From positions 3,924-67,923 of the forward strand of contig JAJZLN010000020.1 of assembly GCA_021803425.1 (NCBI GenBank): a DNA stretch of 64,000 nucleotides, read 5' to 3'. The position numbers were made by a program, and so were the translations under genes. The notes under the pieces are model-generated. The model saw only the letters and a program-made list of their open reading frames with translations. It was not told the DNA's origin and did not search any database. The DNA is from Candidatus Micrarchaeota archaeon. GTDB taxonomy: Archaea; Micrarchaeota; Micrarchaeia; Micrarchaeales; CABMGC01. Each line of letters begins with the position of its first letter. Within the stretch, counting starts at the first letter, position 1. Of this stretch, positions 483-62,318 are shown in pieces.

Positions 483-1235
483 TCATGGGCCTGCTGCTGC
501 GCGCAAATTGCCTATAACGCCGAAATCCATGATTTCTCTTTCGCCTAAGCACAGCGCCCTCATATTGTTTATGTCTATAAAAGACCTAAAAAATGGCACA
601 ATATCACTAACATCCTGGGTATTAACTCCAACTCCCTCAGCAAAATAGTTCATCGCAGGCAAAACTATCGCCTCTTGTCCTTTTTTCGTCTTGCCATAAA
701 GAAAGCAGTGCAGCTTCTCTTTTACACCCACTTTATTGTAAAGGGTTATTGCAGGATGCAGATGGCCCATAACAATAAGTTTGTACAGTTTCTCCCTGGG
801 CATTCCGTCACCGTGGAAAAATAATCTGCTGTTTTCAAGCATTTCGCATGAAAATGTCTCGATTCCTATCCTGTTTTTTACCCTATCCACAAAATTGTCG
901 TGGTTGCCTTTTATCAGGGTAATTCTGCCCAGCTCAAGCTCGGATTTCAAGTAATCAACAAGCTCGCGTAGTTCTTTAAATTCCTCAATGTGGACTTTGG
1001 AAAACTCGTTTTTTATATCCCCATCTATTATCAGCCTGTCCGCCTTCGTTTCATTTACAGCGTGAGTCAATATCCTTTTTATGTTTTTTAAGTTTACTTT
1101 TGGTATGAAATTGCCCTTCTCTGCCATGACGCCCTCATAACCAAGATGCAAATCAGAACATACCAACGCATTCATGCTTTTTATGAATAACACCGGATAG
1201 CCTTCAACTATGCAAAGATCTTCTGTAATCTTCAT
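483..1235 (-). CDS. Metallophosphoesterase (calcineurin-like), partner of the upstream Lhr-type helicase
   Basis: 250-aa ORF with metallophosphoesterase motifs CSDLHLG (DxH), IIDGDIKNEF (GD), IKGNHDNF (GNHD) and MGHLHP (GH). Its ATG overlaps the helicase stop by 4 nt, implying one operon. Confidence 0.8.
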   Translation of the reverse strand: MKITEDLCIVEGYPVLFIKSMNALVCSDLHLGYEGVMAEKGNFIPKVNLKNIKRILTHAVNETKADRLIIDGDIKNEFSKVHIEEFKELRELVDYLKSELELGRITLIKGNHDNFVDRVKNRIGIETFSCEMLENSRLFFHGDGMPREKLYKLIVMGHLHPAITLYNKVGVKEKLHCFLYGKTKKGQEAIVLPAMNYFAEGVGVNTQDVSDIVPFFRSFIDINNMRALCLGEREIMDFGVIGNLRAAAGP

Positions 1236-3877
1236 TTTTTCACACCACGTATCCTTTTCATTACCTCCTTATGCAGCTCCCTGAGATGCCTTCTCCTGTC
1301 ATGCATCATTATGACATCGGCTTCCCCGAACGTCATCATCATATGTGAAAATGGCGAAGGCACTGGCGTATCTATTATCTTATAAACGATATCCTTGCTT
1401 ATCAGTGACTTTATTATCGTTCCGGCCCTCGGCAGATCCATAATGTCTTCGAGTATCTCCCTATAGGTTTCCTTAAGTATAGGAAAATCGCCTCCGATTT
1501 CCTCCACAGCTTTCAGCATCAGCTGGGAGCTTACCTGCTGCTTCCTCACACTTATTTTATATCCAACATAGTTTCTTAGCACCATGAAAGACCTAGCAGC
1601 GCAGTACCTGAACCTTCTTTTCATCATCTCTGTCCTTCTTATGTTGTTTTTCAGTAGCTCTGCTGCATCAATGCCTTCAAAAGATCCGATTATGGACTCT
1701 ATGTCGCTTTTTTTAAGCTTCAGGTCGGCTCCAGTTGCAAGGACAAAACCAATATCCCCTACATTTATGCTTACATCTGCACCATATTTATCCGAAATAG
1801 TTATTGCAAATATCCTAGAAATTGCATCATTTATCCTCCGGCCATAAAGGGAGTGAAATATTATAAGATTCCTTTTGCCCTCCTCATCGAACACCTTTTC
1901 TATAAGCATTGCCTTATGGTTTGGCACAAAATTTGCAAACAATATCTGTTCGGCAAAATAATTGAATGCAGAATTCCTTGAATTGTCATCCATAGGCATG
2001 CGCTCCAATATGCTTCCCTTCCAGTTTTTCCTCGTAAACACCTGTCTGTACCCTGAGTTATTTTTTATCAATTCTGAGCTTCTGACCTCAGTATCGAACG
2101 ATTCCCTGAATTTGCCTATTTCTATAGCCAATTCATATGTCAATGGAAGCTGTTCGGAAAACCACGGGGGTATGGTCGGAATTTGTCCCGGAGCCTCTGT
2201 TACATGGCATGTCATGATGCGTGAATACTCAAACCGGTATGGCTTGCCGCCCAACACAAATATGTCCCCTGGCTTAAGCCTGGTAAGGAACTCCTCCTGT
2301 ATGCTGCCTATCCATTTATTCCCTGGGGCCATCACATTTATCGACACTTCATCAGGTATTGTCCCTAAATTAAGGAAATAAATGAGCCTTGAGCTGCCCT
2401 TTCCATAAAATTTGCCATTTTTTTCATCATACACTATCTTCGCGTACACTCGCCTGTTTTCGAGTTCAACATACTCTCCGGACAGGTATCTAAGTACCGA
2501 TATAAAATCTTCTTTAGGCAGTGTTCGGTATGCATACGTTCTTCTGACAAGGTCAAATGCAGAATCAATATCCCATTTCTTGGTTTGTGACATGCCTACA
2601 ATATGCTGGGATAAAACATCGAGAGCGTTCTTTGGCGTGGTGAATGAATCCAATCTTCTCCTCATGGCAGCGTCAAGCATTACAGAACATTCTATTAGAT
2701 CATCCCTATTAGTCACTATCACTTCCCCCTTTGCAACATCATTGAAGCTGTGGCCACTTCTTCCGATTCTCTGCACAACCCTGGACACGCTCTTCGGCGA
2801 ACCCAACTGCACTACGTTGTCTATAGTACCTATATCTATCCCAAGCTCAAGGCTTGTGGAAGAAACTGCACACTTTAACTTGCCTTTCTTAAGCATGTCT
2901 TCAACACCGAGCCGCATCTCACGGGATAGTGATCCATGGTGGGCTGCGATATCTTCGTTATAGCCAAACTTCTTGGTTAGATTGTATACGACTCTTTCCG
3001 TACCACTTCGCGTATTAGTAAATACAATGGTGGTCCTGTTTTCCTTTATTATCCGGTTTATCATCTGATATATTGAATCCTCAATCCTGGAATCTTTGGC
3101 GTTTATTATGTCCCTCACAGGGCATATGGCAGTAAAATCCATTCTTTTTTCCCATGTTGCGTCTATAATATAACAGTCTCTTTCAGTATCTTTTGAGTAT
3201 CCGACAAGAAATCTTGCGGCATTGTCAAGAGGAGACAGGGTTGCCCCTAACCCTATCCTAACAAAACCATGCCCGATCAAGTCTTCCAGCCTTTCTATTG
3301 AAAGAGAAAGATGCACTCCCCTTTTGTTGTTGGCAAGTTCATGCAACTCATCGATAATGACATACTTAACACTACCTAAATTTTGTAAAAATCTTTCTGA
3401 ATTTATAATTATTGCAAGACTTTCTGGAGTAGTTACAAGTATATTTGGAGGGTGCTTGATGTGCTGCTGCCTAACCTTCGCAGTAGTGTCTCCCGTTCTT
3501 ATACCAACAGATATCTTTTTTATAGGTATTGTTATGTCTGAATATATCTCATCTATTGGTGCAATAAGATTCTGATATATGTCGTTATTCAACGCTCTTA
3601 ATGGAGATACATATATGCAATATACCTTCTCCTCTAATTTGCCAGAGAATGCCAAGTTCATAAGGTCGCTGAGTATTGATGTGAAAGCAGAAAACGTCTT
3701 TCCACTTCCCGTAGGCGCCGTAATAAGGACGCTCTTGTTGTCACTTATCAACTTAAGTGCATATTTCTGCGGAGGGGTAAGCTCCTTGTACTTAGACTCA
3801 AACCACTTTCTTACGAATATGTTTAAGCGTCCAAGGCTCTCTTCCTTGCTGTATGGCTCCTTGATATATTCTATCAC
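1232..3877 (-). CDS. Lhr-family SF2 ATP-dependent helicase (paralog 1)
   Basis: 881-aa ORF with motif I APTGSGKT, motif II IIDELHEL and motif VI QRIGRSGH. A long C-terminal extension is characteristic of Lhr-like (DEAD/DEAH plus DEAD-associated) helicases. Confidence 0.9.
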   Translation of the reverse strand: MIEYIKEPYSKEESLGRLNIFVRKWFESKYKELTPPQKYALKLISDNKSVLITAPTGSGKTFSAFTSILSDLMNLAFSGKLEEKVYCIYVSPLRALNNDIYQNLIAPIDEIYSDITIPIKKISVGIRTGDTTAKVRQQHIKHPPNILVTTPESLAIIINSERFLQNLGSVKYVIIDELHELANNKRGVHLSLSIERLEDLIGHGFVRIGLGATLSPLDNAARFLVGYSKDTERDCYIIDATWEKRMDFTAICPVRDIINAKDSRIEDSIYQMINRIIKENRTTIVFTNTRSGTERVVYNLTKKFGYNEDIAAHHGSLSREMRLGVEDMLKKGKLKCAVSSTSLELGIDIGTIDNVVQLGSPKSVSRVVQRIGRSGHSFNDVAKGEVIVTNRDDLIECSVMLDAAMRRRLDSFTTPKNALDVLSQHIVGMSQTKKWDIDSAFDLVRRTYAYRTLPKEDFISVLRYLSGEYVELENRRVYAKIVYDEKNGKFYGKGSSRLIYFLNLGTIPDEVSINVMAPGNKWIGSIQEEFLTRLKPGDIFVLGGKPYRFEYSRIMTCHVTEAPGQIPTIPPWFSEQLPLTYELAIEIGKFRESFDTEVRSSELIKNNSGYRQVFTRKNWKGSILERMPMDDNSRNSAFNYFAEQILFANFVPNHKAMLIEKVFDEEGKRNLIIFHSLYGRRINDAISRIFAITISDKYGADVSINVGDIGFVLATGADLKLKKSDIESIIGSFEGIDAAELLKNNIRRTEMMKRRFRYCAARSFMVLRNYVGYKISVRKQQVSSQLMLKAVEEIGGDFPILKETYREILEDIMDLPRAGTIIKSLISKDIVYKIIDTPVPSPFSHMMMTFGEADVIMMHDRRRHLRELHKEVMKRIRGVKK

Positions 3878-3940: not shown

Positions 3941-4204
3941 ATGGCAAAGAAAAATTCATCTAAACTTGTGTCATTTAATAGGACGCAGGAAATATATAAG
4001 CTTTTGGAGAAAGGCATAATAGAGAGCGAGGCTCTCATGAATGGATCAGTGGATAGGCCAGAAGATGATGCGCATCTAAGTGATCTTTTGAGCAGCACAT
4101 CTAAGATCACGCATCCGATGAGAACCAAACAGATCCATAAAACAAAACACAAAACTACAAAGAACAAAAAGCACTCAAAACCGAAGCCAAGGAAAAGAAA
4201 ATAG
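3941..4204 (+). CDS. Hypothetical small protein with Lys-rich C-terminal tail
   Basis: 87-aa ORF divergent from the helicase gene. No recognisable domain; the C-terminus is KTKHKTTKNKKHSKPKPRKRK. It competes with an antisense ORF (3919-4167), so coding status is uncertain. Confidence 0.35.
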   Translation: MAKKNSSKLVSFNRTQEIYKLLEKGIIESEALMNGSVDRPEDDAHLSDLLSSTSKITHPMRTKQIHKTKHKTTKNKKHSKPKPRKRK

Positions 4205-4295: not shown

Positions 4296-4781
4296 ATGAA
4301 AATTAAAACAAAGAGCAAGGAACCTCGGAACGTTTTTGCGGTAGTGAAAGAGATGAGAGCCACTTTCACAGAATCGAAAGAAATTGGAACGCTTCTCAAT
4401 CTGGAAGAACTGCCAAAATTCATCTCTGAGGGAGGAATAAAACTGCTTGAAAATACGGATCATTATAGGGAACGTGGGTGGGTAAGCTTCTTTATCGAAG
4501 TTGTAGGAACGAATATGCATGGTTTTTTTAGATTCAACACTGAAGGAAAAACAGTTGACAAAATGTTTATACCGATATCCAAAAACGAATATTTCAAGCT
4601 TCCTTTCAATGAGAGAGCGCGTTTCTGGAGAGGAATCCTGCCTTTGTCAGTGGAATTAGGCCGCAGTCCGGACTTCAACGGCTGGAGACTTGGAATAGGC
4701 GGCGTAAAGTCAGATGTTGTTGCGCCCGTAGTAGTCGTAAAACAACAGCATAATGAAGTAAGCCTACTTAGAAAGCCATGA
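4296..4781 (+). CDS. Hypothetical protein
   Basis: 161-aa ORF with ordinary soluble-protein composition and no motif I recognise. Antisense ORFs on the minus strand look spurious (Cys/Phe/Ser-rich). Confidence 0.5.
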   Translation: MKIKTKSKEPRNVFAVVKEMRATFTESKEIGTLLNLEELPKFISEGGIKLLENTDHYRERGWVSFFIEVVGTNMHGFFRFNTEGKTVDKMFIPISKNEYFKLPFNERARFWRGILPLSVELGRSPDFNGWRLGIGGVKSDVVAPVVVVKQQHNEVSLLRKP

Positions 4782-4916: not shown

Positions 4917-6110
4917 CTATTCTCCGCGTTTCCCTATTGAAAGCCGTACTCCTCCTTGGCTTCGCGTAATTGTTATGTCAAGTCCGTCACTTCCAAGCAT
5001 TTTTCTCAGCTCTTCATACGTGTATGACCCTATATCACTATTGGCGTCCTTGTCCTTTAGTATTTCACTTCTCTTCTGCATCAAGAAATCTTTTTTTATC
5101 GTGGCATATGTCAACCCTAGCTTAGGCACCTCCGCGGCATACATATCGTCAACTCCGCGTTCTATTGGCTTATATCCTTCACTTTGATATATGAATGGGA
5201 ATACTGCAGAAAATTCCGCTTTTATCTCGGTTATGAGTTTATCAACTTTGTCCTGATTCCCTGCAACTACAAAATCATCTCCGTTCAGAAATCCGACAAA
5301 CACGTCAGATCCCCATTCCTTTACCTTCTCCTGCAGAAGCTGCGACACAAGCCGCAGTATGGTAACACCAGAGTCAGTTCCGAAGCGCTGCGCAAATTCA
5401 GCGAGCCCATCAACTCTCAGCCTACCAAGTTCATATTCATCATTATTTTCATTTACTATCTTTTCCACCGCTTCAGATATCCTGTCTTCATTTGGCAAAT
5501 CGACAAGAGGATCGAACTTCTTGCCCTTCTTTTTCAAGAATATTGTAACAAGGCTTCTAAGTTCAACAGGATCGAAAGGCTTTCTTATATAATAATCCGC
5601 ACCGTACTTTATACCTTTGAATCTGTTTGATGTAGGATCCATGGCACTTACTATTATCACTATTATATCGCTTAGATTAGATGTTTTTTTGATGGTCTGG
5701 CATATCTCAAGCCCATCCATACCTGGCAACATTAGGTCAAGTATGACAAGATCCGGCTTTTCGCCTTTTATCTTGGCCATTGCTTCGCTCCCATCATAAA
5801 GCTGTGTTATCTCAAATCCCTTGCCAATGCTTAACCCCATCAGCTTGTTGATGTTCTTGTCATCCTCCACTATCAATATTCTCCTCAAAGAATCTTCGCT
5901 CTGCAAACCGTAATATGTCAATATTCCGCCGCTATTTCTAGACGCTATTGCATTAGCAGCTTCAAGCTCTTTGAGATTGTTCTTCAGCTCATCCTCTTTT
6001 ATACTCAAAGATGAAGCAAAACTTTTCAGCTCGTTGTAAGTTACCTGCTGCCTATCATTTATCATTGATATTATATCGGATTTTATGTCAATAATAGAGC
6101 CCATAACCAT
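4917..6110 (-). CDS. Response regulator: wHTH-like N-terminus, receiver domain, degenerate GGDEF-like C-terminal domain
   Basis: 397 aa. The receiver domain reads RILIVEDDKNINKL.., PDLVILDLMLPGMDG (phospho-acceptor Asp context) and YIRKPF. The C-terminal ~150 aa follows the GGDEF-fold pattern (DPLVDLPNE.., LRVDGLAEF, RFGTDSGVTIL, VGFLNGDDFVV), with NGDDF in place of GG(D/E)EF. Confidence 0.8.
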   Translation of the reverse strand: MVMGSIIDIKSDIISMINDRQQVTYNELKSFASSLSIKEDELKNNLKELEAANAIASRNSGGILTYYGLQSEDSLRRILIVEDDKNINKLMGLSIGKGFEITQLYDGSEAMAKIKGEKPDLVILDLMLPGMDGLEICQTIKKTSNLSDIIVIIVSAMDPTSNRFKGIKYGADYYIRKPFDPVELRSLVTIFLKKKGKKFDPLVDLPNEDRISEAVEKIVNENNDEYELGRLRVDGLAEFAQRFGTDSGVTILRLVSQLLQEKVKEWGSDVFVGFLNGDDFVVAGNQDKVDKLITEIKAEFSAVFPFIYQSEGYKPIERGVDDMYAAEVPKLGLTYATIKKDFLMQKRSEILKDKDANSDIGSYTYEELRKMLGSDGLDITITRSQGGVRLSIGKRGE

Positions 6111-6250
6111 CGCCTGATTACAATTGCTTTAGAAAGTAATAAATACATTCTTTCTTTGAACCCACAATCATGTACAACTAAAAATTCGGACTAAACAGGA
6201 AATACAAAACAAACATAAGTTATAAAAGCTATTCCATCGGATTTTATATT

Positions 6251-7249
6251 GTGCATTTAATGGCATTCAATAAAAAGCGGGGTTTCGCAAAAAAACTTAT
6301 GGTTGTCGTAATCGTAGCGATAGTGATCATAATAGCCGGAGCGCTCATGCTGAACGGAACTCCTACGGTATCCTCGCTTACTACAGTATCCATTATACGT
6401 AATTCAAGCTATAATTTTTATCTTCCTGGAGCCAGCGATTTGTTCTCAATATATCTCATATCTAGTTCGCCATCATCTACAACGCTCTATTTTGGAAAGG
6501 CGCCGATACTGAATAACAACATAGGAGTCGTACAACTAGGTGAAGGCCAGAGCGCAAACATAAGCCTAAATGGCGATAGTAATGCAGACCTGCAGATATC
6601 GGTAATCGCATCAAGCTTAAAATCGGCAACACTTTCGCTTTCATATATACCAAGCACAATAGGGATAAAACAAAGCTCTATTGTCAAATCGCTCAATAAT
6701 TTCAACTCAAGCTATCAGCAAACCCAAACTTCTATTCAAACTACAGTTGCGCAGCAATCGAATACACAGCAGCAAACATCCACAACCACCGTTGCAGTTA
6801 CCACAATACCGCAGGAGACAGCATCGCAGCTGGCGATAACTGCAGCTAACCAAACTTATTTAGGAAAATTAATGTCAGGATATAACCAAATTTATGTGCG
6901 GGAAGCATCGCTCTGCACGCCTTCTGCGTATAATACATCCTTCCTGGAAGCCAACCATTATCCTCCTTCAGGCCCATATACATATTCAAATGCAAGCGTT
7001 GTTGTGCCGAGATATATAACTGCAAATGCAACATTAGTATCAGGTGATACTTACAATGCAACGTATACTGCAGCATCTCTTTCAGGCAAATCTACAATAC
7101 TTATATTCACATTCAACAACAATACAAAAGCCGTGACAAGTTACACATTCAAAGGAGATTTCCTGGACCTTTCGTATAATGAAGCCCTCCAGCAGTACCA
7201 ATCAATGAACTTATCTTCAGGAGGGGACTGCTCCGCTTATATACCTTGA
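6251..7249 (+). CDS. Membrane-anchored or secreted Ser/Thr/Gln-rich protein, hypothetical
   Basis: 332-aa ORF. The N-terminus has basic residues then a hydrophobic helix (KKLMVVVIVAIVIIIAGALML). A low-complexity Q/T linker (QQTQTSIQTTVAQQSNTQQQTSTTT) and many N-x-S/T sequons are present. The ORF track starts at GTG 6251; ATG 6260 is an alternative start. Confidence 0.6.
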   Translation: MHLMAFNKKRGFAKKLMVVVIVAIVIIIAGALMLNGTPTVSSLTTVSIIRNSSYNFYLPGASDLFSIYLISSSPSSTTLYFGKAPILNNNIGVVQLGEGQSANISLNGDSNADLQISVIASSLKSATLSLSYIPSTIGIKQSSIVKSLNNFNSSYQQTQTSIQTTVAQQSNTQQQTSTTTVAVTTIPQETASQLAITAANQTYLGKLMSGYNQIYVREASLCTPSAYNTSFLEANHYPPSGPYTYSNASVVVPRYITANATLVSGDTYNATYTAASLSGKSTILIFTFNNNTKAVTSYTFKGDFLDLSYNEALQQYQSMNLSSGGDCSAYIP

Positions 7250-9498
7250 TGCTCGCTTTTGTTGTATTTTAGGGTCCTATCCCTGACCTTCGGATTAATT
7301 GGCAGCGTAAACCAGAAAACGCATCCCTTTCCCAATTCCGAATCAACATTTATCCTGCCTCCATGAAGATTTACTATCTCCTTTGCTATTGAAAGCCCCA
7401 ATCCGGTTCCGGAGCCTTCCTGTTTTACAAGGCCCCTCCTGAGTTGGTAGAATTTCTTGAATATCTTAGGCTTGTCTTCTTTTGCTATTCCTATCCCCGT
7501 ATCTGAAACTTCTATTCTAACACCGCGTGATCCGCCTGTTTTTTTCATGATGTGGATTTTTATGCTGCCAGTTTCGGTGAATTTCAGCGAATTGCCTATG
7601 AGGTTGGAAAACACCTGGATCAGCCGATTTGGATCTGCAGTAATTTCGGGAACGTCATAATCAACTATCCATAAAAATTCGAGATTTTTATTTTTGCATG
7701 CCTCCTCCAGAGATTTTATGCTTGGATTCTCCTTTATTTCATTGAAGTTTACCCGCTGAAAATCAAGTTTGACTATGCCTGATGACAATTTTGCAACATC
7801 AAGTATCTGTTTGACCAACAGAAGGAACCTTTCAGATTCGTCATGGATTATTTGTATGTAGTCTATCTGTTCCTTGGTAAGATTTGAAGAGTAATCGGTA
7901 AGGATTATTTTTGAAAAACCCATTATATTAGTTATTGGGGTTTTGAGATCATGGGATATATTGTATATGAATTGGGATTTCAAATCGCTTTCAGTCCTGA
8001 GTTTTTCCACATCTCTTATGGCTTTATCAAGTTCCTCGTTCAGCAATTCAAGTTTTTCTTTAGTTGCAAGCTCCTTATTCATTATTATGAACTTTATTAC
8101 CTTTCCCTTCTCGTCCTTTATGGATTTTATTGTTTGTACGCAGTGCATGCTCCCGTGCGTCTTGTAATCAACAAGATTAACATATACATCACTTATATAG
8201 CCATTTGTTTTGGCAATGGATAATGATGCTGAAAGCTTATTCTGGCTCTCGGAATCCGCGCATATGGAATATATTGACATCCCTACAATCCCTCTTTCAA
8301 GCTTGAAAAGAGATCCGGCAGCAGTATTGTATGAAATTATATATCCGGAACCATCGGCTTCTATAATTGGCTCATTTGATAAGCTTAACACATCTTCGGT
8401 TATAGTCTCTGCGCTGCCAACAAAGCTCTCATAATCCTTAGACGCTATGCAATAAATTTGATTCCCGCTCTTATATGAAAGCATCTTGCCTGAAAATTCT
8501 GCACCTCCGCCAAAATCAAATTTTAGTTTATTGTAATGTTTCTGCTCTGCTGTTGCCTTGAGTAGATTCTTTGCATTAAGTGGTTCAACAATGAAATCGG
8601 ACAGCTTCTTTCCCACCAATATGTCATTCCTTATCCCAAAAAGTTCAAGAGAGCTCCTGCTTGACCATAATATATTAGTATCATCGTCAAGTATCAAGAA
8701 TGTTTCACTGTCAGTATTGTCCAGAAACTGCAGCTTAGACCACGCTTCCTTTGTAGCGCTTATATCATTAGCGAGCAAATGCAAAAGATTATCATTTATC
8801 TTGCTTGGAGAAAGTTCGAATATCCTATCGCTGCCGTGTGCTTTCAGCTCTATGGACATTCCTTTCTTTAGCTTTGCAAAATTCGCTTCGCTGATTTCAA
8901 ATATCTCAGATATGTTGGATCCAAGGATATCCTTCTGTGAGATATCAAATAGATTCAATGCGGGCTTGTTGGCCTTGGCGATGCGTCCTTCTGAGTCTAT
9001 AAGCAACTGTGGAAGACGGTTATTGAATGAGGCATCGAAATAGCGTGCTATGTTTAAGCTTTTGTCGCGCTCATATTTTGATCCCAGTTCACTGCACGTC
9101 ACTGCAGAAGCAATTGATAGCATATTAATCTTGTCTTCGCCAAATCCTTCATTGGTTTTGGAGAGGAGGGTTATAGTGCCGAAATGCCTTCCATCCTTAG
9201 ACATGGGAATTATCGCACAGCTCCTGAACCCATTATTGTAATATTTTATTAGTTCCGGAAATGCGGAATAGTCGCTAAGCTCATTATCCACATATGGCTT
9301 TCCGGTATTCAATACCACCTCTTCAGCAGCAACTATTACAGAGCTGGGAGAATACTCCTTGACTATGATTTCATCAATTGAAAGCAACGCCTTTAGATAA
9401 TCGCCAAATTTATACAGAAGATCTCTATAGCTTGAAGATTTAGTACTTATTCCAAGAGTTTCAATTACAATATTATCGTTTGAAGCGGACGTAAGCAT
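7237..9498 (-). CDS. Cytoplasmic sensor histidine kinase (GAF-like plus PAS-like repeats, HisKA, HATPase_c)
   Basis: 753 aa with no obvious TM helix. H-box ISHDLKTPITNIMGF, N-box FSNLIGNSLKFT, G1 VSDTGIGI, G2 EGSGTGLGLSIAKEIV. The 3' end overlaps the convergent gene 6251-7249 by 13 nt. Confidence 0.9.
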   Translation of the reverse strand: MLTSASNDNIVIETLGISTKSSSYRDLLYKFGDYLKALLSIDEIIVKEYSPSSVIVAAEEVVLNTGKPYVDNELSDYSAFPELIKYYNNGFRSCAIIPMSKDGRHFGTITLLSKTNEGFGEDKINMLSIASAVTCSELGSKYERDKSLNIARYFDASFNNRLPQLLIDSEGRIAKANKPALNLFDISQKDILGSNISEIFEISEANFAKLKKGMSIELKAHGSDRIFELSPSKINDNLLHLLANDISATKEAWSKLQFLDNTDSETFLILDDDTNILWSSRSSLELFGIRNDILVGKKLSDFIVEPLNAKNLLKATAEQKHYNKLKFDFGGGAEFSGKMLSYKSGNQIYCIASKDYESFVGSAETITEDVLSLSNEPIIEADGSGYIISYNTAAGSLFKLERGIVGMSIYSICADSESQNKLSASLSIAKTNGYISDVYVNLVDYKTHGSMHCVQTIKSIKDEKGKVIKFIIMNKELATKEKLELLNEELDKAIRDVEKLRTESDLKSQFIYNISHDLKTPITNIMGFSKIILTDYSSNLTKEQIDYIQIIHDESERFLLLVKQILDVAKLSSGIVKLDFQRVNFNEIKENPSIKSLEEACKNKNLEFLWIVDYDVPEITADPNRLIQVFSNLIGNSLKFTETGSIKIHIMKKTGGSRGVRIEVSDTGIGIAKEDKPKIFKKFYQLRRGLVKQEGSGTGLGLSIAKEIVNLHGGRINVDSELGKGCVFWFTLPINPKVRDRTLKYNKSEHQGI

Positions 9499-9760: not shown

Positions 9761-10429
9761 GTGCTGATTATGAAAATAGAAAAGATATCCGAAGGGATAT
9801 TCAAAGTAGACGGAAGGCTTGCAACTATTAATTTGACTCCGGATTCAAAGGTGTATGGAGAAGAGCTAATAGAAGTAGAAGGAATACAGTATAGATCGTG
9901 GAATCCATACAGAAGCAAACTTGCAGCGGCAATAAGCAAGGGGCTCACGAATATCCATATGAAGCCAAAGAGCCATATACTGTATTTAGGCGCAGCCACA
10001 GGTACAACAAGCAGTCACCTAAGCGACATAGTTGGAAAAGATGGGATAATATACTGCATAGAGATAGCAGAACGCAGTATGAGAGATCTATTGAAGGTTT
10101 GTGAAAAAAGAAGCAACATGCTGCCCGTATTGCAAGATGCAAGAAAAATCGAATCTTATTCTGAAGAAGTAGGACAAGTGGACATAATATATCAAGACGT
10201 AGCGGCAAGAGACCAGGATATAATACTGCTCAGAAATTCGGATATGCTTAAGAAAGGAGGGTATGCATACGTTGCAATAAAATCACAGAGCATAGATGTA
10301 TCCAGAGATCCGAAACTAGTTTATAGAGAGTTTCTTGACTCCATATCAGGAAAATTTGATGTTTTAGAAAAATTGGATTTATCTCCTTACGACCAAATGC
10401 ACCTCTTTGTTGCCCTGAGAAAAAAATGA
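9761..10429 (+). CDS. flpA: Fibrillarin (C/D box sRNP rRNA/tRNA 2'-O-methyltransferase)
   Basis: 222-aa ORF with YRSWNPYRSKLAAAI, the SAM-binding motif ILYLGAATGTTSSHLSDIV, and IYQDVA. ATG at 9770 (MKIEKISEG..) is the more likely start than GTG 9761. Confidence 0.92.
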   Translation: MLIMKIEKISEGIFKVDGRLATINLTPDSKVYGEELIEVEGIQYRSWNPYRSKLAAAISKGLTNIHMKPKSHILYLGAATGTTSSHLSDIVGKDGIIYCIEIAERSMRDLLKVCEKRSNMLPVLQDARKIESYSEEVGQVDIIYQDVAARDQDIILLRNSDMLKKGGYAYVAIKSQSIDVSRDPKLVYREFLDSISGKFDVLEKLDLSPYDQMHLFVALRKK

Positions 10430-10593: not shown

Positions 10594-11448
10594 ATGGACA
10601 TTTCCAGATATCTCAAGGAAATAGATAATATACAAAATTCAGATTTGTTGTGCAGATGTTGCGGGGCGAAAGTCGCAGTGTTGTCTAATGCTTCTGAATC
10701 GATATGCAATTTCTGTGAGGCTTTTGTAACATATGACCATGCAAATGTCGTCCATGGCTCAAGGGAAATAGAAAAAAATTTGTTAGGGATGCAGAATGCG
10801 GTAGCTGATGGCAAATGGGAAGAGGGAGTGCAATATGCAGACGCACTTGCCGCTACAAAAGAGCCGCACTTCCTTTTTGGTGCATCGGCATTTTACAGAT
10901 ACTTTTCAGACCGCATATACAATGGCATAGACTATTCGCTGCCAGGATTCATGTACAGTAATTCAGAAAAAAGAAGTGATGAATACAATAAAAACAAATT
11001 CAACGCAATGGCAAACATCTCAAAGTCGAAAGAATTCCTGTTCAAAGCGATAAAGATAATGAATGGTACTGCATCCCAAGACCCAGAGATTATTTTCCTT
11101 CATTTCATGTCAGAAATTAAACTTAAGAGGAATGTACTCTCGAAAAAATTGCTGAATGATATAAAAGGGTCAAAAACCCCAGACCAGATAAAAAGTTATT
11201 CTGAAATGGTTTACGGAGTTGCCACAGGAGACAGACAATCAGAAAAATATATCTCGGATTCTATATCTAAGGGGATAGCAAATTCCATTTATTACCTGTC
11301 AAAGTACCTTGCATCAAATAAACGGGAAATAGAGGCTTCGATAATTTTGCTTACTGAATTTGTCAAAAAAACAAATATGCCAATGGCATATTTTGATATC
11401 ATCTCCCTTAAGGCCGTAGGCAACGCGTCCTATCTTGAGGTATATTAA
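10594..11448 (+). CDS. Hypothetical protein with N-terminal zinc-ribbon-like CxxC..CxxC
   Basis: 284-aa ORF with CRCCGAKVAVLSNASESICNFC near the N-terminus and a helical remainder. Its stop overlaps the GH15 start by 1 nt (TAATG). Confidence 0.6.
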   Translation: MDISRYLKEIDNIQNSDLLCRCCGAKVAVLSNASESICNFCEAFVTYDHANVVHGSREIEKNLLGMQNAVADGKWEEGVQYADALAATKEPHFLFGASAFYRYFSDRIYNGIDYSLPGFMYSNSEKRSDEYNKNKFNAMANISKSKEFLFKAIKIMNGTASQDPEIIFLHFMSEIKLKRNVLSKKLLNDIKGSKTPDQIKSYSEMVYGVATGDRQSEKYISDSISKGIANSIYYLSKYLASNKREIEASIILLTEFVKKTNMPMAYFDIISLKAVGNASYLEVY

Positions 11449-13205
11449 TGCAAAAAAGCAATGAGCACATATTCCTGTCGAACTCGATGACTTCTGCCCT
11501 TGAATCTAACGGAGAGATTGATTGGTTTCCATGTCCAAGATTTGATTCTGACTCCATATTTTCCAAAATATTAGGAGATGATAGAGCAGGTTACTTTTCA
11601 ATAAAACCCAAATTAGATTACACCCTGCACACTTCTTATGTAGGCAATAGTCTTGCAGTATTGAATACCTTTGAAACCAAAAAGGGAAGATTAAAGCTCA
11701 TTGACTTCATCCCTCTCGGAATGCCTGCAATAATGCGCATATTTGATTCAGAAATCCCATTCACTGTGGATGTAAAACCAGTATTCCGTTATGGATCTAT
11801 AAAGGCGGAAGTGAGCAAGGAAACAAATGGATTTACGTTCAGAAATCCAAAAGCAGAGGATTCTTTGGAGATAGGCATAAAGGGAAAATATTCTGAAGAC
11901 AAAGAGGGAAGAATAACTGTTGAGAAAGGACGGGGGCATGTTTTTGCATTGTATTCAAAGAATTCCAGATATGGTTTATTTGGCTCTGGAGGTTCAGTTT
12001 TTGGGCACCCAAATGAAGCTTATGAATCAATGATAAAATATTGGAATATGCAAATTTCGATGGCAAGAAGCGTGTCAACGTTCAAAAAAGCTTACCAGAG
12101 GTCCATAGCTACAATCCTCGGACTCATGTATCTGCCTTCTGGCGCAGTGATAGCCGCCTCTTCTGCATCTCTGCCGGAAATAATTGGCGGATTGAGGAAC
12201 TGGGACTATAGATATGTATGGATACGCGACGCTTCATATGCTGCAAATTCGCTCTCAAAAGCAGGATTATTTTCAAAATCCAGAAGAATTCTTAATTTCA
12301 TGATAAGTGTGGTGGACCCTTCTTCAAAAACTTTCAATCACCCACTTTATTCAGTAGACGGCACAGCGCCAGCTCCTGAAGAGACGCTGTCTTGGCTAGC
12401 AGGCAACAGGAATTCAAAGCCCGTCAGGATAGGCAACGATGCATATATCCAAATGCAGAAAGATATAGAAGGCGCATTTATGGATGCGCTGTATGTTTAT
12501 ACCGTTAATTCCAAGGACACAGTGCTTGCCCAAGAAAGCTGGTGGGTGGTCGAATCGATAGCAAGATGGGTAACTTCTTCATGGAAGGATAAGAGCATAA
12601 GTTTGTGGGAAGAAAGATCCGAACAGAAACATTATGTCCATACAAAATTAATGGATTATGTGTCATTGGATAGGGCATCAAAACTTGCAAAAATATTGGA
12701 CAAGCAAGATTTTACGTATAAATGGGACAAGATTAAATCTGCAATAAAAAATGATTTTCTAAAAAATGGCTTCTTGACCAAGAGGGGTGCTTTTGTTAAT
12801 TATTACGGTTCGGAATCCCTTGACGCATCTCTTCTGTGTCTGCCCTTATATGATGCCATAGATATTTCAGACAAAAGATTCCTTTCTACATTATCACAAA
12901 TAGAAGCTGAACTTTCTGTGGATGAAGGGTTGCTTTTAAGGTATAAATCTGATTTCGCAGGTGACGTAGTGCACCCATTTACCCTTTTATCCACATGGCT
13001 TGCAAGAGTATATATAAAATTGGGAGAGCTTGACAAAGCCAAGCACATAATAAACATCCTGATTGATAATTCTACCAGCCAGTACCTAATGTCTGAGCAC
13101 GTTGACCACATATTGAATGAATCTAGGGGGAATTTTCCGCAACTGTTTCCACATGCAGGACTTGTTGAAGCAATAATAGACTATGAGGACAAGAAAATAT
13201 CCTAG
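11448..13205 (+). CDS. Glycoside hydrolase family 15 (glucoamylase/trehalase-like)
   Basis: 585 aa. GH15 signature region LRNWDYRYVWIRDASYAANSL, plus a later WEERSEQKHYVHTKLM segment typical of the (alpha/alpha)6 catalytic domain. Confidence 0.88.
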   Translation: MQKSNEHIFLSNSMTSALESNGEIDWFPCPRFDSDSIFSKILGDDRAGYFSIKPKLDYTLHTSYVGNSLAVLNTFETKKGRLKLIDFIPLGMPAIMRIFDSEIPFTVDVKPVFRYGSIKAEVSKETNGFTFRNPKAEDSLEIGIKGKYSEDKEGRITVEKGRGHVFALYSKNSRYGLFGSGGSVFGHPNEAYESMIKYWNMQISMARSVSTFKKAYQRSIATILGLMYLPSGAVIAASSASLPEIIGGLRNWDYRYVWIRDASYAANSLSKAGLFSKSRRILNFMISVVDPSSKTFNHPLYSVDGTAPAPEETLSWLAGNRNSKPVRIGNDAYIQMQKDIEGAFMDALYVYTVNSKDTVLAQESWWVVESIARWVTSSWKDKSISLWEERSEQKHYVHTKLMDYVSLDRASKLAKILDKQDFTYKWDKIKSAIKNDFLKNGFLTKRGAFVNYYGSESLDASLLCLPLYDAIDISDKRFLSTLSQIEAELSVDEGLLLRYKSDFAGDVVHPFTLLSTWLARVYIKLGELDKAKHIINILIDNSTSQYLMSEHVDHILNESRGNFPQLFPHAGLVEAIIDYEDKKIS

Positions 13206-13215
13206 CCAGTAGGCC

Positions 13216-14655
13216 TTATCCTTTCACTACTGCAATAGGCACATTCCTTGCAACAGCCTTGGCAATACCAGCATTGCCAACAGTCTTCACCACTTCATCA
13301 ACATCTTTATATGTCCACTCAGCTTCTTCGCTTACTAATTTTTTTGTCCTTATCCTTATGCTTATGTTTTTATTACTCAGGGAATTGAAAGTTTTTGATG
13401 CTGGTATCTCTCTTAGCGCTTGGTGCCTTGACATTACTCTTCCAGCGCCATGGCATGCAGACCCAAAGGTTTCTTCCATTGCACCATCACTGCCGCATAA
13501 AACATAGCTTGCAGTACCCATGCTTCCCGGTATAAGAACAGGCTGGCCAACGCCCCGGTATTTTTTTGGTATTTCATCCCTTCCCGCAGCAAATGATCTT
13601 GTTGCGCCTTTACGGTGCACATATACCTTCCTCTTCTTTCCCATGACCATATGCTCTTCCAATTTGACTATATTATGTGACAGGTCATACAGTACATCCA
13701 TGCCCAAAGCGTCAGAACTCTTCTTAAACACATTTTCGAAACTTTTGCGGATTGAATTGGTGATTATTTGCTTATTAGTAAATGCGTAATTCACAGCGCA
13801 TTTCATTGCCCCCATATAATCATAAAATTCGTTGCTGCCCACATGCGCATACCCCAATTCAGGATCAGGAAGTACTATATTGTGCTTCTTCTGATACTCA
13901 AGCAATATCTTCAGATAATCACTGCATATTTGATGGCCAAATCCGCGTGACCCCGTATGAACCATTATAACTATTTGGCCTTTGTACAGCCCATATGCTT
14001 TTGCAGTTTTGTCGTCTAATATGCTTTCAACCTTTTGTATTTCAAGAAAATGGTTTCCTGCACCAAGCGTCCCTAGCTCGTTGAGCCCTCTAGATCTAGC
14101 TTCCTTGCTTACTTTGGAAAAATCAGCGCCTGACATGCCCCCGTTTTCTTCTATTCTTTCTATATCTTCATCGATACCAAAGCCCTTCTCGATTATATAT
14201 GGCACTCCGTGCTCGGCTATTTTTTGCAAGTCTTTTTGAGAAAGGCCTAAATTCATTCTGCTCCCGACACCACTTGGGACATTCTTGAACAGCTCATCCA
14301 ATATGTTTTCTACGTTTACACGTAATTCTGCTTCTTCGATATTGGTCTTGATAAGCCTTACAGAGCAATTTATATCAAACCCAACAGCGCCAGGAGAGAC
14401 TATGCCATTTTCTGCATCCGACGCCATTACGCCGCCTATAGGGAATCCGTATCCTTCATGTCCATCAGGCATGACCATGACATTGCCGACAAGGCCCGGA
14501 AGCTTTGCGGCGTTTGACGCCTGAATAAGCGTCTTGTCAAGTTTCATCTTTTCGATCATTTGCTTGTTAGAATAAATGACTACATCAGTATTCATACCTG
14601 GAAATGCTTGTTTCTGTACCATAAACTTATTATCATTGATTATTTCTATCTCCAT
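13216..14655 (-). CDS. rtcB: RNA-splicing ligase RtcB (3'-phosphate/5'-hydroxyl RNA ligase)
   Basis: 479 aa with PDGHEGYGFPIGGV, GAGNHFLEIQ, HTGSRGFGHQ and ACHGAGR. No intein is evident. Confidence 0.95.
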   Translation of the reverse strand: MEIEIINDNKFMVQKQAFPGMNTDVVIYSNKQMIEKMKLDKTLIQASNAAKLPGLVGNVMVMPDGHEGYGFPIGGVMASDAENGIVSPGAVGFDINCSVRLIKTNIEEAELRVNVENILDELFKNVPSGVGSRMNLGLSQKDLQKIAEHGVPYIIEKGFGIDEDIERIEENGGMSGADFSKVSKEARSRGLNELGTLGAGNHFLEIQKVESILDDKTAKAYGLYKGQIVIMVHTGSRGFGHQICSDYLKILLEYQKKHNIVLPDPELGYAHVGSNEFYDYMGAMKCAVNYAFTNKQIITNSIRKSFENVFKKSSDALGMDVLYDLSHNIVKLEEHMVMGKKRKVYVHRKGATRSFAAGRDEIPKKYRGVGQPVLIPGSMGTASYVLCGSDGAMEETFGSACHGAGRVMSRHQALREIPASKTFNSLSNKNISIRIRTKKLVSEEAEWTYKDVDEVVKTVGNAGIAKAVARNVPIAVVKG

Positions 14656-59811: not shown

Positions 59812-59831
59812 TATTGTGCCACAGTACTTAT

Positions 59832-59906
59832 GGACCCGTAACTCAGCTTGGTCAGAGTGGCTGGCTCTTAACCAGCAAGTCGAGGGTTCAAATCCCTCCG
59901 GGTCCG
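59832..59906 (+). tRNA. tRNA-Lys (anticodon CTT), 75 nt
   Basis: Acceptor GGACCCG/CGGGTCC plus G; anticodon stem GCTGG/CCAGC with loop CTCTTAA; T arm GAGGG-TTCAAAT-CCCTC. Confidence 0.92.
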
Positions 59907-59983
59907 TTGATCTTCATTCAATGGCATACTGGCAGTAAAGCATACGAAATTAGGCATTATGCAAATATTTTTAACGGAGTGCT

Positions 59984-62243: not shown

Positions 62244-62318
62244 AGCGAGGTAGGGTAGCATGGAGTGCCCGCCGGGCTCATAACCCGGAGATCGGTGGTT
62301 CAAATCCACCTCTCGCTA
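62244..62318 (+). tRNA. tRNA-Met (anticodon CAT), initiator type, 75 nt
   Basis: Acceptor AGCGAGG/TCTCGCT (A1:U72) plus A. Anticodon stem CCGGG/CCCGG has three G:C pairs next to loop CTCATAA. T arm GGTGG-TTCAAAT-CCACC. Confidence 0.88.

Follow-up and report, generated by a model that had tools for sequence, protein, structure and literature searches.

The closest described relatives of the gene considered here are listed in the 2018 census of archaeal two-component systems by Galperin et al., in which the ARMAN orthologs are given as wHTH-REC-GGDEF proteins (winged helix-turn-helix, receiver and GGDEF domains) with an inactivated GGDEF (PMC5847659). Its supplementary tables annotate UNLARM2_0239 of ARMAN-2 as "wHTH-REC-GGDEF" and both BK997_02000 of ARMAN-1 and JJ59_05330 as "REC-GGDEF", place the kinase two genes from the regulator, and give one response regulator and one or two histidine kinases for the Micrarchaeota genomes covered, several of which hold exactly one of each (PMC5847659). 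The labels in Tables S2/S3 are not consistent across this ortholog family, with the ARMAN-2 ortholog listed as 'wHTH-REC-GGDEF' and Mia14_0100 of Ca. Micrarchaeota Mia14 as 'wHTH-REC-bGlyc' (PMC5847659); the census treats these 'WspR-like' regulators in a one-line annotation and leaves the question of contamination open (PMC5847659). We analysed a 64,000-nucleotide stretch of Candidatus Micrarchaeota contig JAJZLN010000020.1 (hereafter the window), which carries at 4917-6110 a response regulator (RR) gene from the same phylum and with the same three-domain architecture. The window gene is an ortholog of the census regulators from which it differs in nothing essential, and a wHTH-REC-inactivated-GGDEF regulator is thus already known and not a new kind of system. 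What can be added to the 2018 account is the archaeal provenance of the family and its spread across at least 80 Micrarchaeota genomes, a residue-level description of the catalytic positions that it has lost or retained, the bacterial subfamily of GGDDF type from which it came, and reasons to doubt that it binds DNA.

Several described proteins from elsewhere resemble the RR in part. WspR (3bre, 3i5a), PleD (1w25, 2v0n) and DgcR (6zxb) share with it a REC domain placed directly upstream of a GGDEF fold, and their working principle is phosphorylation-controlled oligomerisation; unlike the RR, they are active enzymes with GG[D/E]EF, a metal-binding Asp, an Asn and an Asp that read the base and, in most cases, an RxxD I-site, and they lack its N-terminal winged helix and C-terminal tail. 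The bacterial degenerate GGDEF proteins CC3396 (GEDEF-EAL) and PA3258 (GGDDF-EAL) are like it in that the fold has been selected without cyclase activity, as a regulatory or binding module (PMC8835794), but there the degenerate domain regulates an attached EAL domain in cells with cyclic di-GMP (c-di-GMP) signalling, whereas the RR is not joined to any enzymatic domain and its lineage is not known to have c-di-GMP machinery. The known archaeal wHTH-REC regulators LtrR of Methanococcoides and FilR1 of Methanosaeta combine an N-terminal winged helix with REC as the RR does (PMC5847659), but carry no GGDEF-like domain; the winged helix of the RR is by comparison acidic and its DNA binding putative.

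Domain structure and GGDEF homology

The RR is a three-part protein in which a winged helix is followed by an intact REC receiver and, directly C-terminal to REC, by a true but degenerate homolog of GGDEF (Pfam and AlphaFold2 (AF2) models). An earlier note on this DNA, made from the sequence alone, had described a clear receiver followed by a degenerate GGDEF-like domain without stating the strand, which is minus; that description is borne out by the domain searches below. The gene and its parts are laid out as follows.

4917..6110, minus strand: RR gene, 397 aa, from the open reading frame (ORF) list; Pfam REC and a sub-threshold GGDEF match; 80 full-length orthologs at 63-79% identity
5901..6089, minus strand: N-terminal winged-helix domain, residues 8-70, from the full-length AF2 model and weak wHTH profile matches
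5532..5885, minus strand: REC receiver, residues 76-193, PF00072 E=1.5e-25, key residues invariant
5736-5738, minus strand: codon of the phospho-acceptor D125
5046..5516, minus strand: degenerate GGDEF-like (palm) core, residues 199-355, element order a0-b1-a1-a2-b2-b3-a3-b4-a4, from hhalign, the family profile and Foldseek
5271..5285, minus strand: NGDDF, counterpart of the GG[D/E]EF active-site hairpin, aligned to GGDDF/GGDEF/GGEEF
4920..5045, minus strand: family-specific C-terminal tail, residues 356-397, helix and beta-hairpin, outside the hhalign and GGDEF alignments and well conserved in orthologs

Two in-frame ATGs (M1 and M3) lie at window positions 6104-6110 on the minus strand, and alignment with the orthologs begins at residue 3 or 8. 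Translation may in fact begin at the second of them (6104), giving a protein of 395 aa, since a Shine-Dalgarno-like site, GGCGAT(C), sits just before it and ends at the first ATG. The receiver was recognised by Pfam PF00072 over residues 78-188 with 90 bits against a cutoff of 30.2 (E=1.5e-25), and its acidic pocket (E82/D83), phospho-acceptor D125, S155 and K177 are all invariant in the ortholog alignment; the modelled domain superposes on the PhoB, YycF and ArlR receivers at 1.3-1.8 Å.

Homology of the C-terminal domain to GGDEF is established, although the window protein by itself scored only 18.6-20.3 bits against PF00990 (cutoff 23.8), with residues 199-286 falling on profile positions 3-90 of 161. 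A single-sequence search of the C-terminal module against PDB returned marginal matches only, so that a family profile was needed. The C-terminal 203 residues found 26 close relatives in a database of 5.8 billion proteins, all of them metagenomic, and both that bore a taxon name were Micrarchaeota. When a HMMER profile built from 25 C-terminal modules was run against PDB, diguanylate cyclases led the list, with a Vibrio cholerae GGEEF protein first (6eib, E=2.7e-4), followed by DosC, DgcB and SiaD, the cyclase matches together spanning E=2.7e-4 to 0.4; the profile was in register with these enzymes, setting FvGflnsDDFvv opposite FCGRVGGEEFII. PF00990 was matched individually by 15/25 family members (best E=1.7e-5). 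An exhaustive hmmsearch of 1.84 billion representative proteins gave 1,224 matches, those beyond the family covering profile positions of about 6-120 at E=5e-14 and weaker, and the ten that were checked were bona fide GGDEF proteins (Pfam E 1e-11 to 6e-19), mostly REC-GGDEF or REC-GGDEF-EAL. By hhalign, the family aligned with six of these bacterial GGDEF proteins over 135 columns, which run from the DPLxDLP motif as far as strand b4 (probability 99.3%, E=2.8e-20).

Structure prediction led to the same fold. The AF2 model of the C-terminal module (predicted local distance difference test (pLDDT) 76, predicted template-modelling score 0.72) showed the elements a0-b1-a1-a2-b2-b3-a3-b4-a4 in order, with the signature on the b2-b3 hairpin; its top 28 Foldseek matches in PDB were all GGDEF, the first 95-115 residues superposing at 2.6-3.5 Å, and the second half of the domain diverged from canonical GGDEF. 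For the full-length model (pLDDT 80), the best fold matches were WspR, PleD and DgcR (E=8e-13 to 1e-10), so the comparison with PleD and WspR that the earlier note had proposed turned up no unrelated fold. Its four motifs are in place as quoted (DPLVDLPNE at 200-208, LRVDGLAEF at 231-239, RFGTDSGVTIL at 242-252 and VGFLNGDDFVV at 272-282), and its motif-by-motif alignment to GGDEF agrees exactly with three independent ones, namely the HMMER profile alignments to DosC and the V. cholerae GGEEF protein, Pfam PF00990 and hhalign. Membership of the Cas10 palm or mCpol group was considered and set aside, weak Cas10 palm2 matches occurring in only 2/25 members and GGDEF always scoring better.

The last ~65 residues of the RR are family-specific and include a helix and beta-hairpin, IGSYTYEELR..LG...LDITITR, for which the predicted elements are helix 365-371 and strands 379-384 and 387-392. 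A loop, PFIYQSEGYKPIE.G, at residues 305-319 (window 5154-5198, minus strand) is near-invariant in 81 orthologs, despite which AF2 residues 315-325 have a pLDDT below 50; this loop could serve in docking or ligand binding.

Fate of the catalytic residues

Catalytic positions were mapped through the DosC and hhalign alignments and their residues tallied in 81 orthologs, with the role of the first Asp of DxDxFK as metal ligand taken by us from the PleD and WspR structures. The RxxD I-site, an allosteric site located five residues before the signature, is frequent in diguanylate cyclases without being required. The residues found at each position were as follows.

Metal-binding Asp (first D of DxDxFK, strand b1): R232 in the window; R in 58 and K in 14 of 81 orthologs
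Lys of DxDxFK: A237 in the window; A in 71 of 81
Guanine-reading Asn: A240 in the window; A in 79 of 81
Guanine-reading Asp: V249 in the window; I in 61, V in 10 and M in 9 of 81
First Gly of the signature: N276 in the window; N in 64 and D in 16 of 81
Second Gly of the signature: G277 in the window; G in 47, S in 24 and A in 10 of 81 (S or A in 34/81, 42%)
RxxD I-site, positions 267-270: not there in the window; variable and non-matching in orthologs (G/S, N/S/D/K, V/A/I/T)

The window's NGDDF departs from the active-site motif [G/A/S]G[D/E]E[F/Y], with D at the fourth position in the orthologs as well. The end of the signature is strongly kept (D278 in 73/81, D279 in 80/81 and F in 81/81) and position 234 is D, E or N in 78/81, whereas divergent members of the family have lost the acidic pair (GESSF, GDSFF, GENAF, EENKF). 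The earlier note had pointed to replacement of the base-recognising Asn, which is A240, and doubted cyclase activity, a doubt that the loss of the metal, base-reading and first-Gly residues strengthens. It had also counted NGDDF against activity; inactivity is very likely, but NGDDF by itself does not prove it, since the GGDDF enzyme GSU1937 is active, its GADDF mutant being dead (PMC8835794). Diguanylate cyclase activity of the domain is, on these alignments, very unlikely because metal, phosphate and base contacts are lost together. The RR is therefore WspR/PleD-like in architecture but, judged by its residues, not a functional member of that group, and no phosphorylation-stimulated c-di-GMP synthesis would be expected of it. 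The domain must nonetheless do something, because it is under purifying selection comparable to that on the other parts of the protein, with mean top-residue frequencies in the 81 orthologs of 0.75 for the GGDEF-like domain, 0.85 for REC and 0.70 for the winged helix.

Provenance, synteny and origin

Scanning GTDB with one genome for each species turned up 340 relatives, and the counts that follow rest on the best 80 of these 340. All 80 are full length, with 63-79% identity to the window protein; about 70 are labelled Micrarchaeota, Micrarchaeia or Micrarchaeaceae, and the remainder 'uncultured archaeon', 'archaeon', 'Candidatus Marsarchaeota' and, in one case, 'bacterium'. The gene order is conserved: fibrillarin, histidine kinase (HK), ORF332 on the opposite strand, RR, a small Lys-rich ORF, Lhr helicase and metallophosphoesterase. 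Fibrillarin was present in 55/80 loci, the HK in 59/80, ORF332 in 64/80 and Lhr in 51/80, and absences were mostly at contig ends. Identity among loci is 63-79% for the RR against 34-60% for the kinase and 56-69% for fibrillarin, so that the RR is at least as conserved as fibrillarin. Bacterial contamination is ruled out by 80 genomes with conserved synteny that includes fibrillarin, Lhr and RtcB; the RR gene is archaeal, and the question that the 2018 census left open is settled.

Two neighbours bear on how the RR may work.

7237..9498, minus strand: soluble HK, presumed cognate; Pfam GAF, three PAS, HisKA and HATPase_c
6251..7249, plus strand: ORF332, between HK and RR, divergent from the RR and convergent with the HK

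The soluble PAS/GAF kinase on the same strand had been named in the earlier note and is as described there, with no transmembrane segment and with its place kept in the loci counted above; we infer from this conserved synteny that it pairs with the RR, and in a divergent lineage (member P0040) a PAS kinase directly adjoins the RR. ORF332 has an N-terminal transmembrane anchor, a Ser+Thr content of 25% and 11 N-x-S/T sequons, and Pfam gave no match; translation may really begin at the ATG at 6260. It is a candidate surface glycoprotein, possibly co-regulated with the two-component system or regulated by it.

The closest relatives outside the family are bacterial (Chloroflexota, Thermodesulfobacterium and unclassified bacteria). 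They form a REC-GGDEF(-EAL) subfamily, matched at E=1e-15 to 1e-8 (for example Chloroflexota NOZ06155.1 and Thermodesulfobacterium MCD6548610.1), which resembles the RR in its short REC-GGDEF linker and in a signature ending in DDF. Unlike the RR, its members have neither winged helix nor tail and keep the catalytic and substrate-binding residues: P0043-P0053 represent a subtype with NPLTxLPGN, DxDxFKxxND, GD and FVGHIGGDDF in which the catalytic residues are all intact. REC lies directly upstream in 60% of the outgroup matches, with a similarly short linker and REC identity of up to 46%. The simplest history consistent with these comparisons is that a bacterial REC-GGDEF regulator entered the ancestor of Micrarchaeota, with N-terminal fusion of the winged helix and decay of the active site to follow. 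In most members of the bacterial subtype Pfam covers only the first ~105 of 161 GGDEF positions, and some match the Cas10/Cmr2 palm2 profile weakly (E=1.6e-5).

The wider window holds further archaeal housekeeping genes: fibrillarin (9761-10429), a GH15 glucoamylase/trehalase-like enzyme (11448-13205) and RtcB ligase (13216-14655), together with tRNA-Gln, tRNA-Lys and tRNA-Met (372-446, 59831-59907 and 62244-62318), and these confirm an archaeal chromosome. An Lhr-type helicase (DEAD, Helicase_C, WH_Lhr, DEAD_assoc) with an overlapping calcineurin-like metallophosphoesterase occupies 483-3877 on the minus strand, and the pair is kept downstream of the RR in 41-51 of the 80 loci. The small ORF87 (3941-4204, plus strand) has a very Lys-rich C-terminus (…KTKHKTTKNKKHSKPKPRKRK) and no Pfam match, and adjoins the RR in 48/80 loci. 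Between it and the RR in the window lies ORF161 (4296-4781, plus strand), which has no Pfam match and no counterpart in the 80 related loci; since ORF87 follows within ~150 nt after the RR in the relatives, ORF161 looks like a window-specific insertion of ~0.5-0.7 kb.

Proposed switch and competing readings

We propose, with a probability of roughly 0.6, that the RR is a phospho-switch in which the pseudo-cyclase domain provides a scaffold for dimerisation or regulation and output passes through the winged helix. The neighbouring soluble GAF-PAS kinase, if synteny is a guide to pairing, would phosphorylate D125, and phosphorylation would reorganise REC-mediated oligomerisation, as in WspR, PleD and DgcR. 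The GGDEF-derived domain would make no c-di-GMP and would serve as the scaffold for dimerisation or regulation, and the resulting rearrangement would control the N-terminal winged helix, whose output, by binding DNA or a protein partner, is the least secure step of the scheme.

The winged helix itself is well modelled. In the full-length AF2 model (pLDDT 81-93 in this part), DSSP assigned helix 9-20, strand 22-24, helices 25-34 and 39-51, and strands 55-60 and 63-68, and the topology of residues 9-68, H1-S1-H2-H3-S2-S3, is that of a canonical winged helix. Profile matches were weak but consistent (CodY HTH at E=1.3e-3, TFE, BlaI/MecI (Penicillinase_R), MCM WHD, TrmB and MarR), and the wHTH-like segment suspected earlier is supported by the modelled topology. 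Conserved basic residues are limited to K43 and K/R44, where helix 3 begins, and to R58 in the wing, and the invariant surface consists of the wing, A-I-A-S-R58-x-S-G-G-I-L-T-Y-Y, together with N18 and Q21; a conserved basic or polar recognition helix was not found. A divergent relative, P0057 (318 aa, L081 312-1268, on a 1.5 kb contig), has a winged helix, REC and a degenerate GGDEF with the signature HVEENKF but no tail, and its helix 3 is typically basic (NRNRITVSKYLE). By this comparison P0057 may represent a sister lineage in which DNA binding was retained.

A candidate site for such binding lies upstream of the RR gene.

6132..6154, no strand assigned: RR promoter element GAAAG-AATGTATTTATTA-CTTTC (BRE-like, TATA, downstream CTTTC), candidate regulatory site; conserved block in 80 orthologous upstream regions

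The block, AAAG-(AT-rich TATA core)-CTTTC, is conserved in orthologs ~25 nt upstream of the GGCGATC ribosome-binding site, and the window copy, GAAAGAATGTATTTATTACTTTC at 6132-6154, is the only instance with the AT core in 64 kb. It proved specific to RR promoters: the strict pattern occurred in 16/79 of these and, among controls, in only one ORF87 and two ORF332 promoters, ORF332 sharing the RR intergenic region. In a leave-one-out test the position weight matrix (PWM) gave a median of 15.7 bits for RR promoters against 1.4-3.6 for most control promoters. Reading the element as a palindromic operator, GAAAG-N13-CTTTC overlapping the RR TATA box, was rejected, as the arms do not covary, the spacer between them varies from 8 to 13 nt and the PWM matches in the window are mostly generic. 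We treat the element as a conserved promoter and, on its sequence conservation, as a candidate regulatory site.

Several observations weigh against the proposed switch, most of them at the winged helix. All of its profile matches are under curated thresholds; it is net acidic (mean charge -3.9, with a mean of -1.7 for helix 3), the acidic residues of helix 3 are conserved (E39, E/D40, E48, E50), and conservation is poor at the exposed residues of this helix, an unusual feature in a protein that reads DNA sequence-specifically. The arms of the promoter palindrome showed no covariation (2.36/5 complementary positions observed vs 2.57 permuted), and elsewhere in the window the PWM found mostly generic BRE/TATA-like sites. 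At the other end of the protein, D278 and D279 are near-invariant in the core clade and may reflect a residual metal- or ligand-dependent function, and neither the tail nor the second half of the GGDEF-like region could be aligned to canonical GGDEF, so that the phosphate-binding Lys and Arg are not mappable. A literature search on Micrarchaeota two-component proteins found no experimental work on any family member. DNA binding by the winged helix is thus plausible by architecture, but the acidity of the domain and the lack of arm covariation in the candidate operator leave it insecure. As one ground for refuting its reading, the earlier note had named homologs that are common and already characterised in archaea; common they are in Micrarchaeota, and annotated since 2018 (PMC5847659), but none has been characterised experimentally.

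The best-surviving alternative overlaps the proposed switch and holds that the winged helix does not bind DNA, output being purely protein-protein, towards the transcription machinery, the kinase or ORF332, with the wing and the pseudo-GGDEF domain as contact surfaces. The acidity of the winged helix and of helix 3, the invariance of the wing, N18 and Q21, and the lack of covariation in the candidate operator would all suit such an output, as would the presence of MCM WHD among the best single Pfam matches and of TFE among the PDB matches, and the census concludes that archaeal two-component signalling is mainly protein-protein (PMC5847659). An N-terminal wHTH with REC is, however, the usual archaeal DNA-binding design, as in LtrR and FilR1 (PMC5847659), K43, K/R44 and R58 are conserved, and P0057 has its basic helix 3; we regard a purely protein-protein output as possible, and hold it only tentatively.

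It is unlikely, though it deserves some weight, that the degenerate GGDEF domain is instead a receptor for a nucleotide or other ligand, the RR combining phosphorylation with a metabolite signal, in the manner of the degenerate GGDEF domains found in some bacterial GGDEF-EAL proteins. Degenerate GGDEF domains have been discussed as binding domains (PMC8835794), and the near-invariant D278/D279 of the core clade, D, E or N at position 234 and the PFIYQSEGYKPIE loop, whose low model confidence fits a binding loop, are what such a receptor might keep. Against it, the domain has lost the metal-binding Asp and both guanine-reading residues and lacks an RxxD I-site, divergent family members have lost the acidic pair, and for these genomes, in which the census lists one HK and one RR, no further component of c-di-GMP signalling is on record. 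A bolder version appears more doubtful still: the RR as master switch of episymbiotic DPANN archaea, its pseudo-GGDEF domain (DD pair, Arg at the former metal site, invariant PFIYQSEGYKPIE loop) binding a nucleotide or host-derived ligand and, with the GAF-PAS kinase, controlling the divergent ORF332. If true, it would be an archaeal receptor built on a bacterial cyclase fold.

We give very little credence to an active nucleotidyl cyclase with a non-canonical site, making a cyclic or linear oligonucleotide signal. The activity of the GGDDF enzyme GSU1937 (PMC8835794), the DD conserved in the core clade and the catalytic residues kept by the nearest bacterial relatives, some of which weakly match the Cas10 palm profile, are the points in its favour. 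They are outweighed by the exchange of the metal-binding Asp for Arg or Lys and of the transition-state Lys for Ala, by hydrophobic residues at both base-reading positions, by N or D at the first Gly, by S or A at the second in 42% of orthologs, an exchange that abolishes the activity of GSU1937, and by the divergent members without the acidic pair. That the likeness to GGDEF arose by chance, or that the gene is a bacterial contaminant, might have been suggested by the Pfam score below the gathering threshold and by the caution of the census, but is refuted by hhalign (E=2.8e-20), by fold matches that are exclusively GGDEF and by 80 syntenic Micrarchaeota genomes.

Domains of c-di-GMP signalling are, to our knowledge, essentially absent from archaea, and a GGDEF-derived domain fixed across an archaeal phylum is therefore a clear case of a bacterial enzyme fold captured and repurposed non-catalytically. 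Because the census lists one response regulator and one or two histidine kinases, and the genomes are very small, the RR is probably the main environmental or host-sensing switch of Micrarchaeota, and knowledge of its target would be highly informative on lifestyle control in these DPANN archaea.

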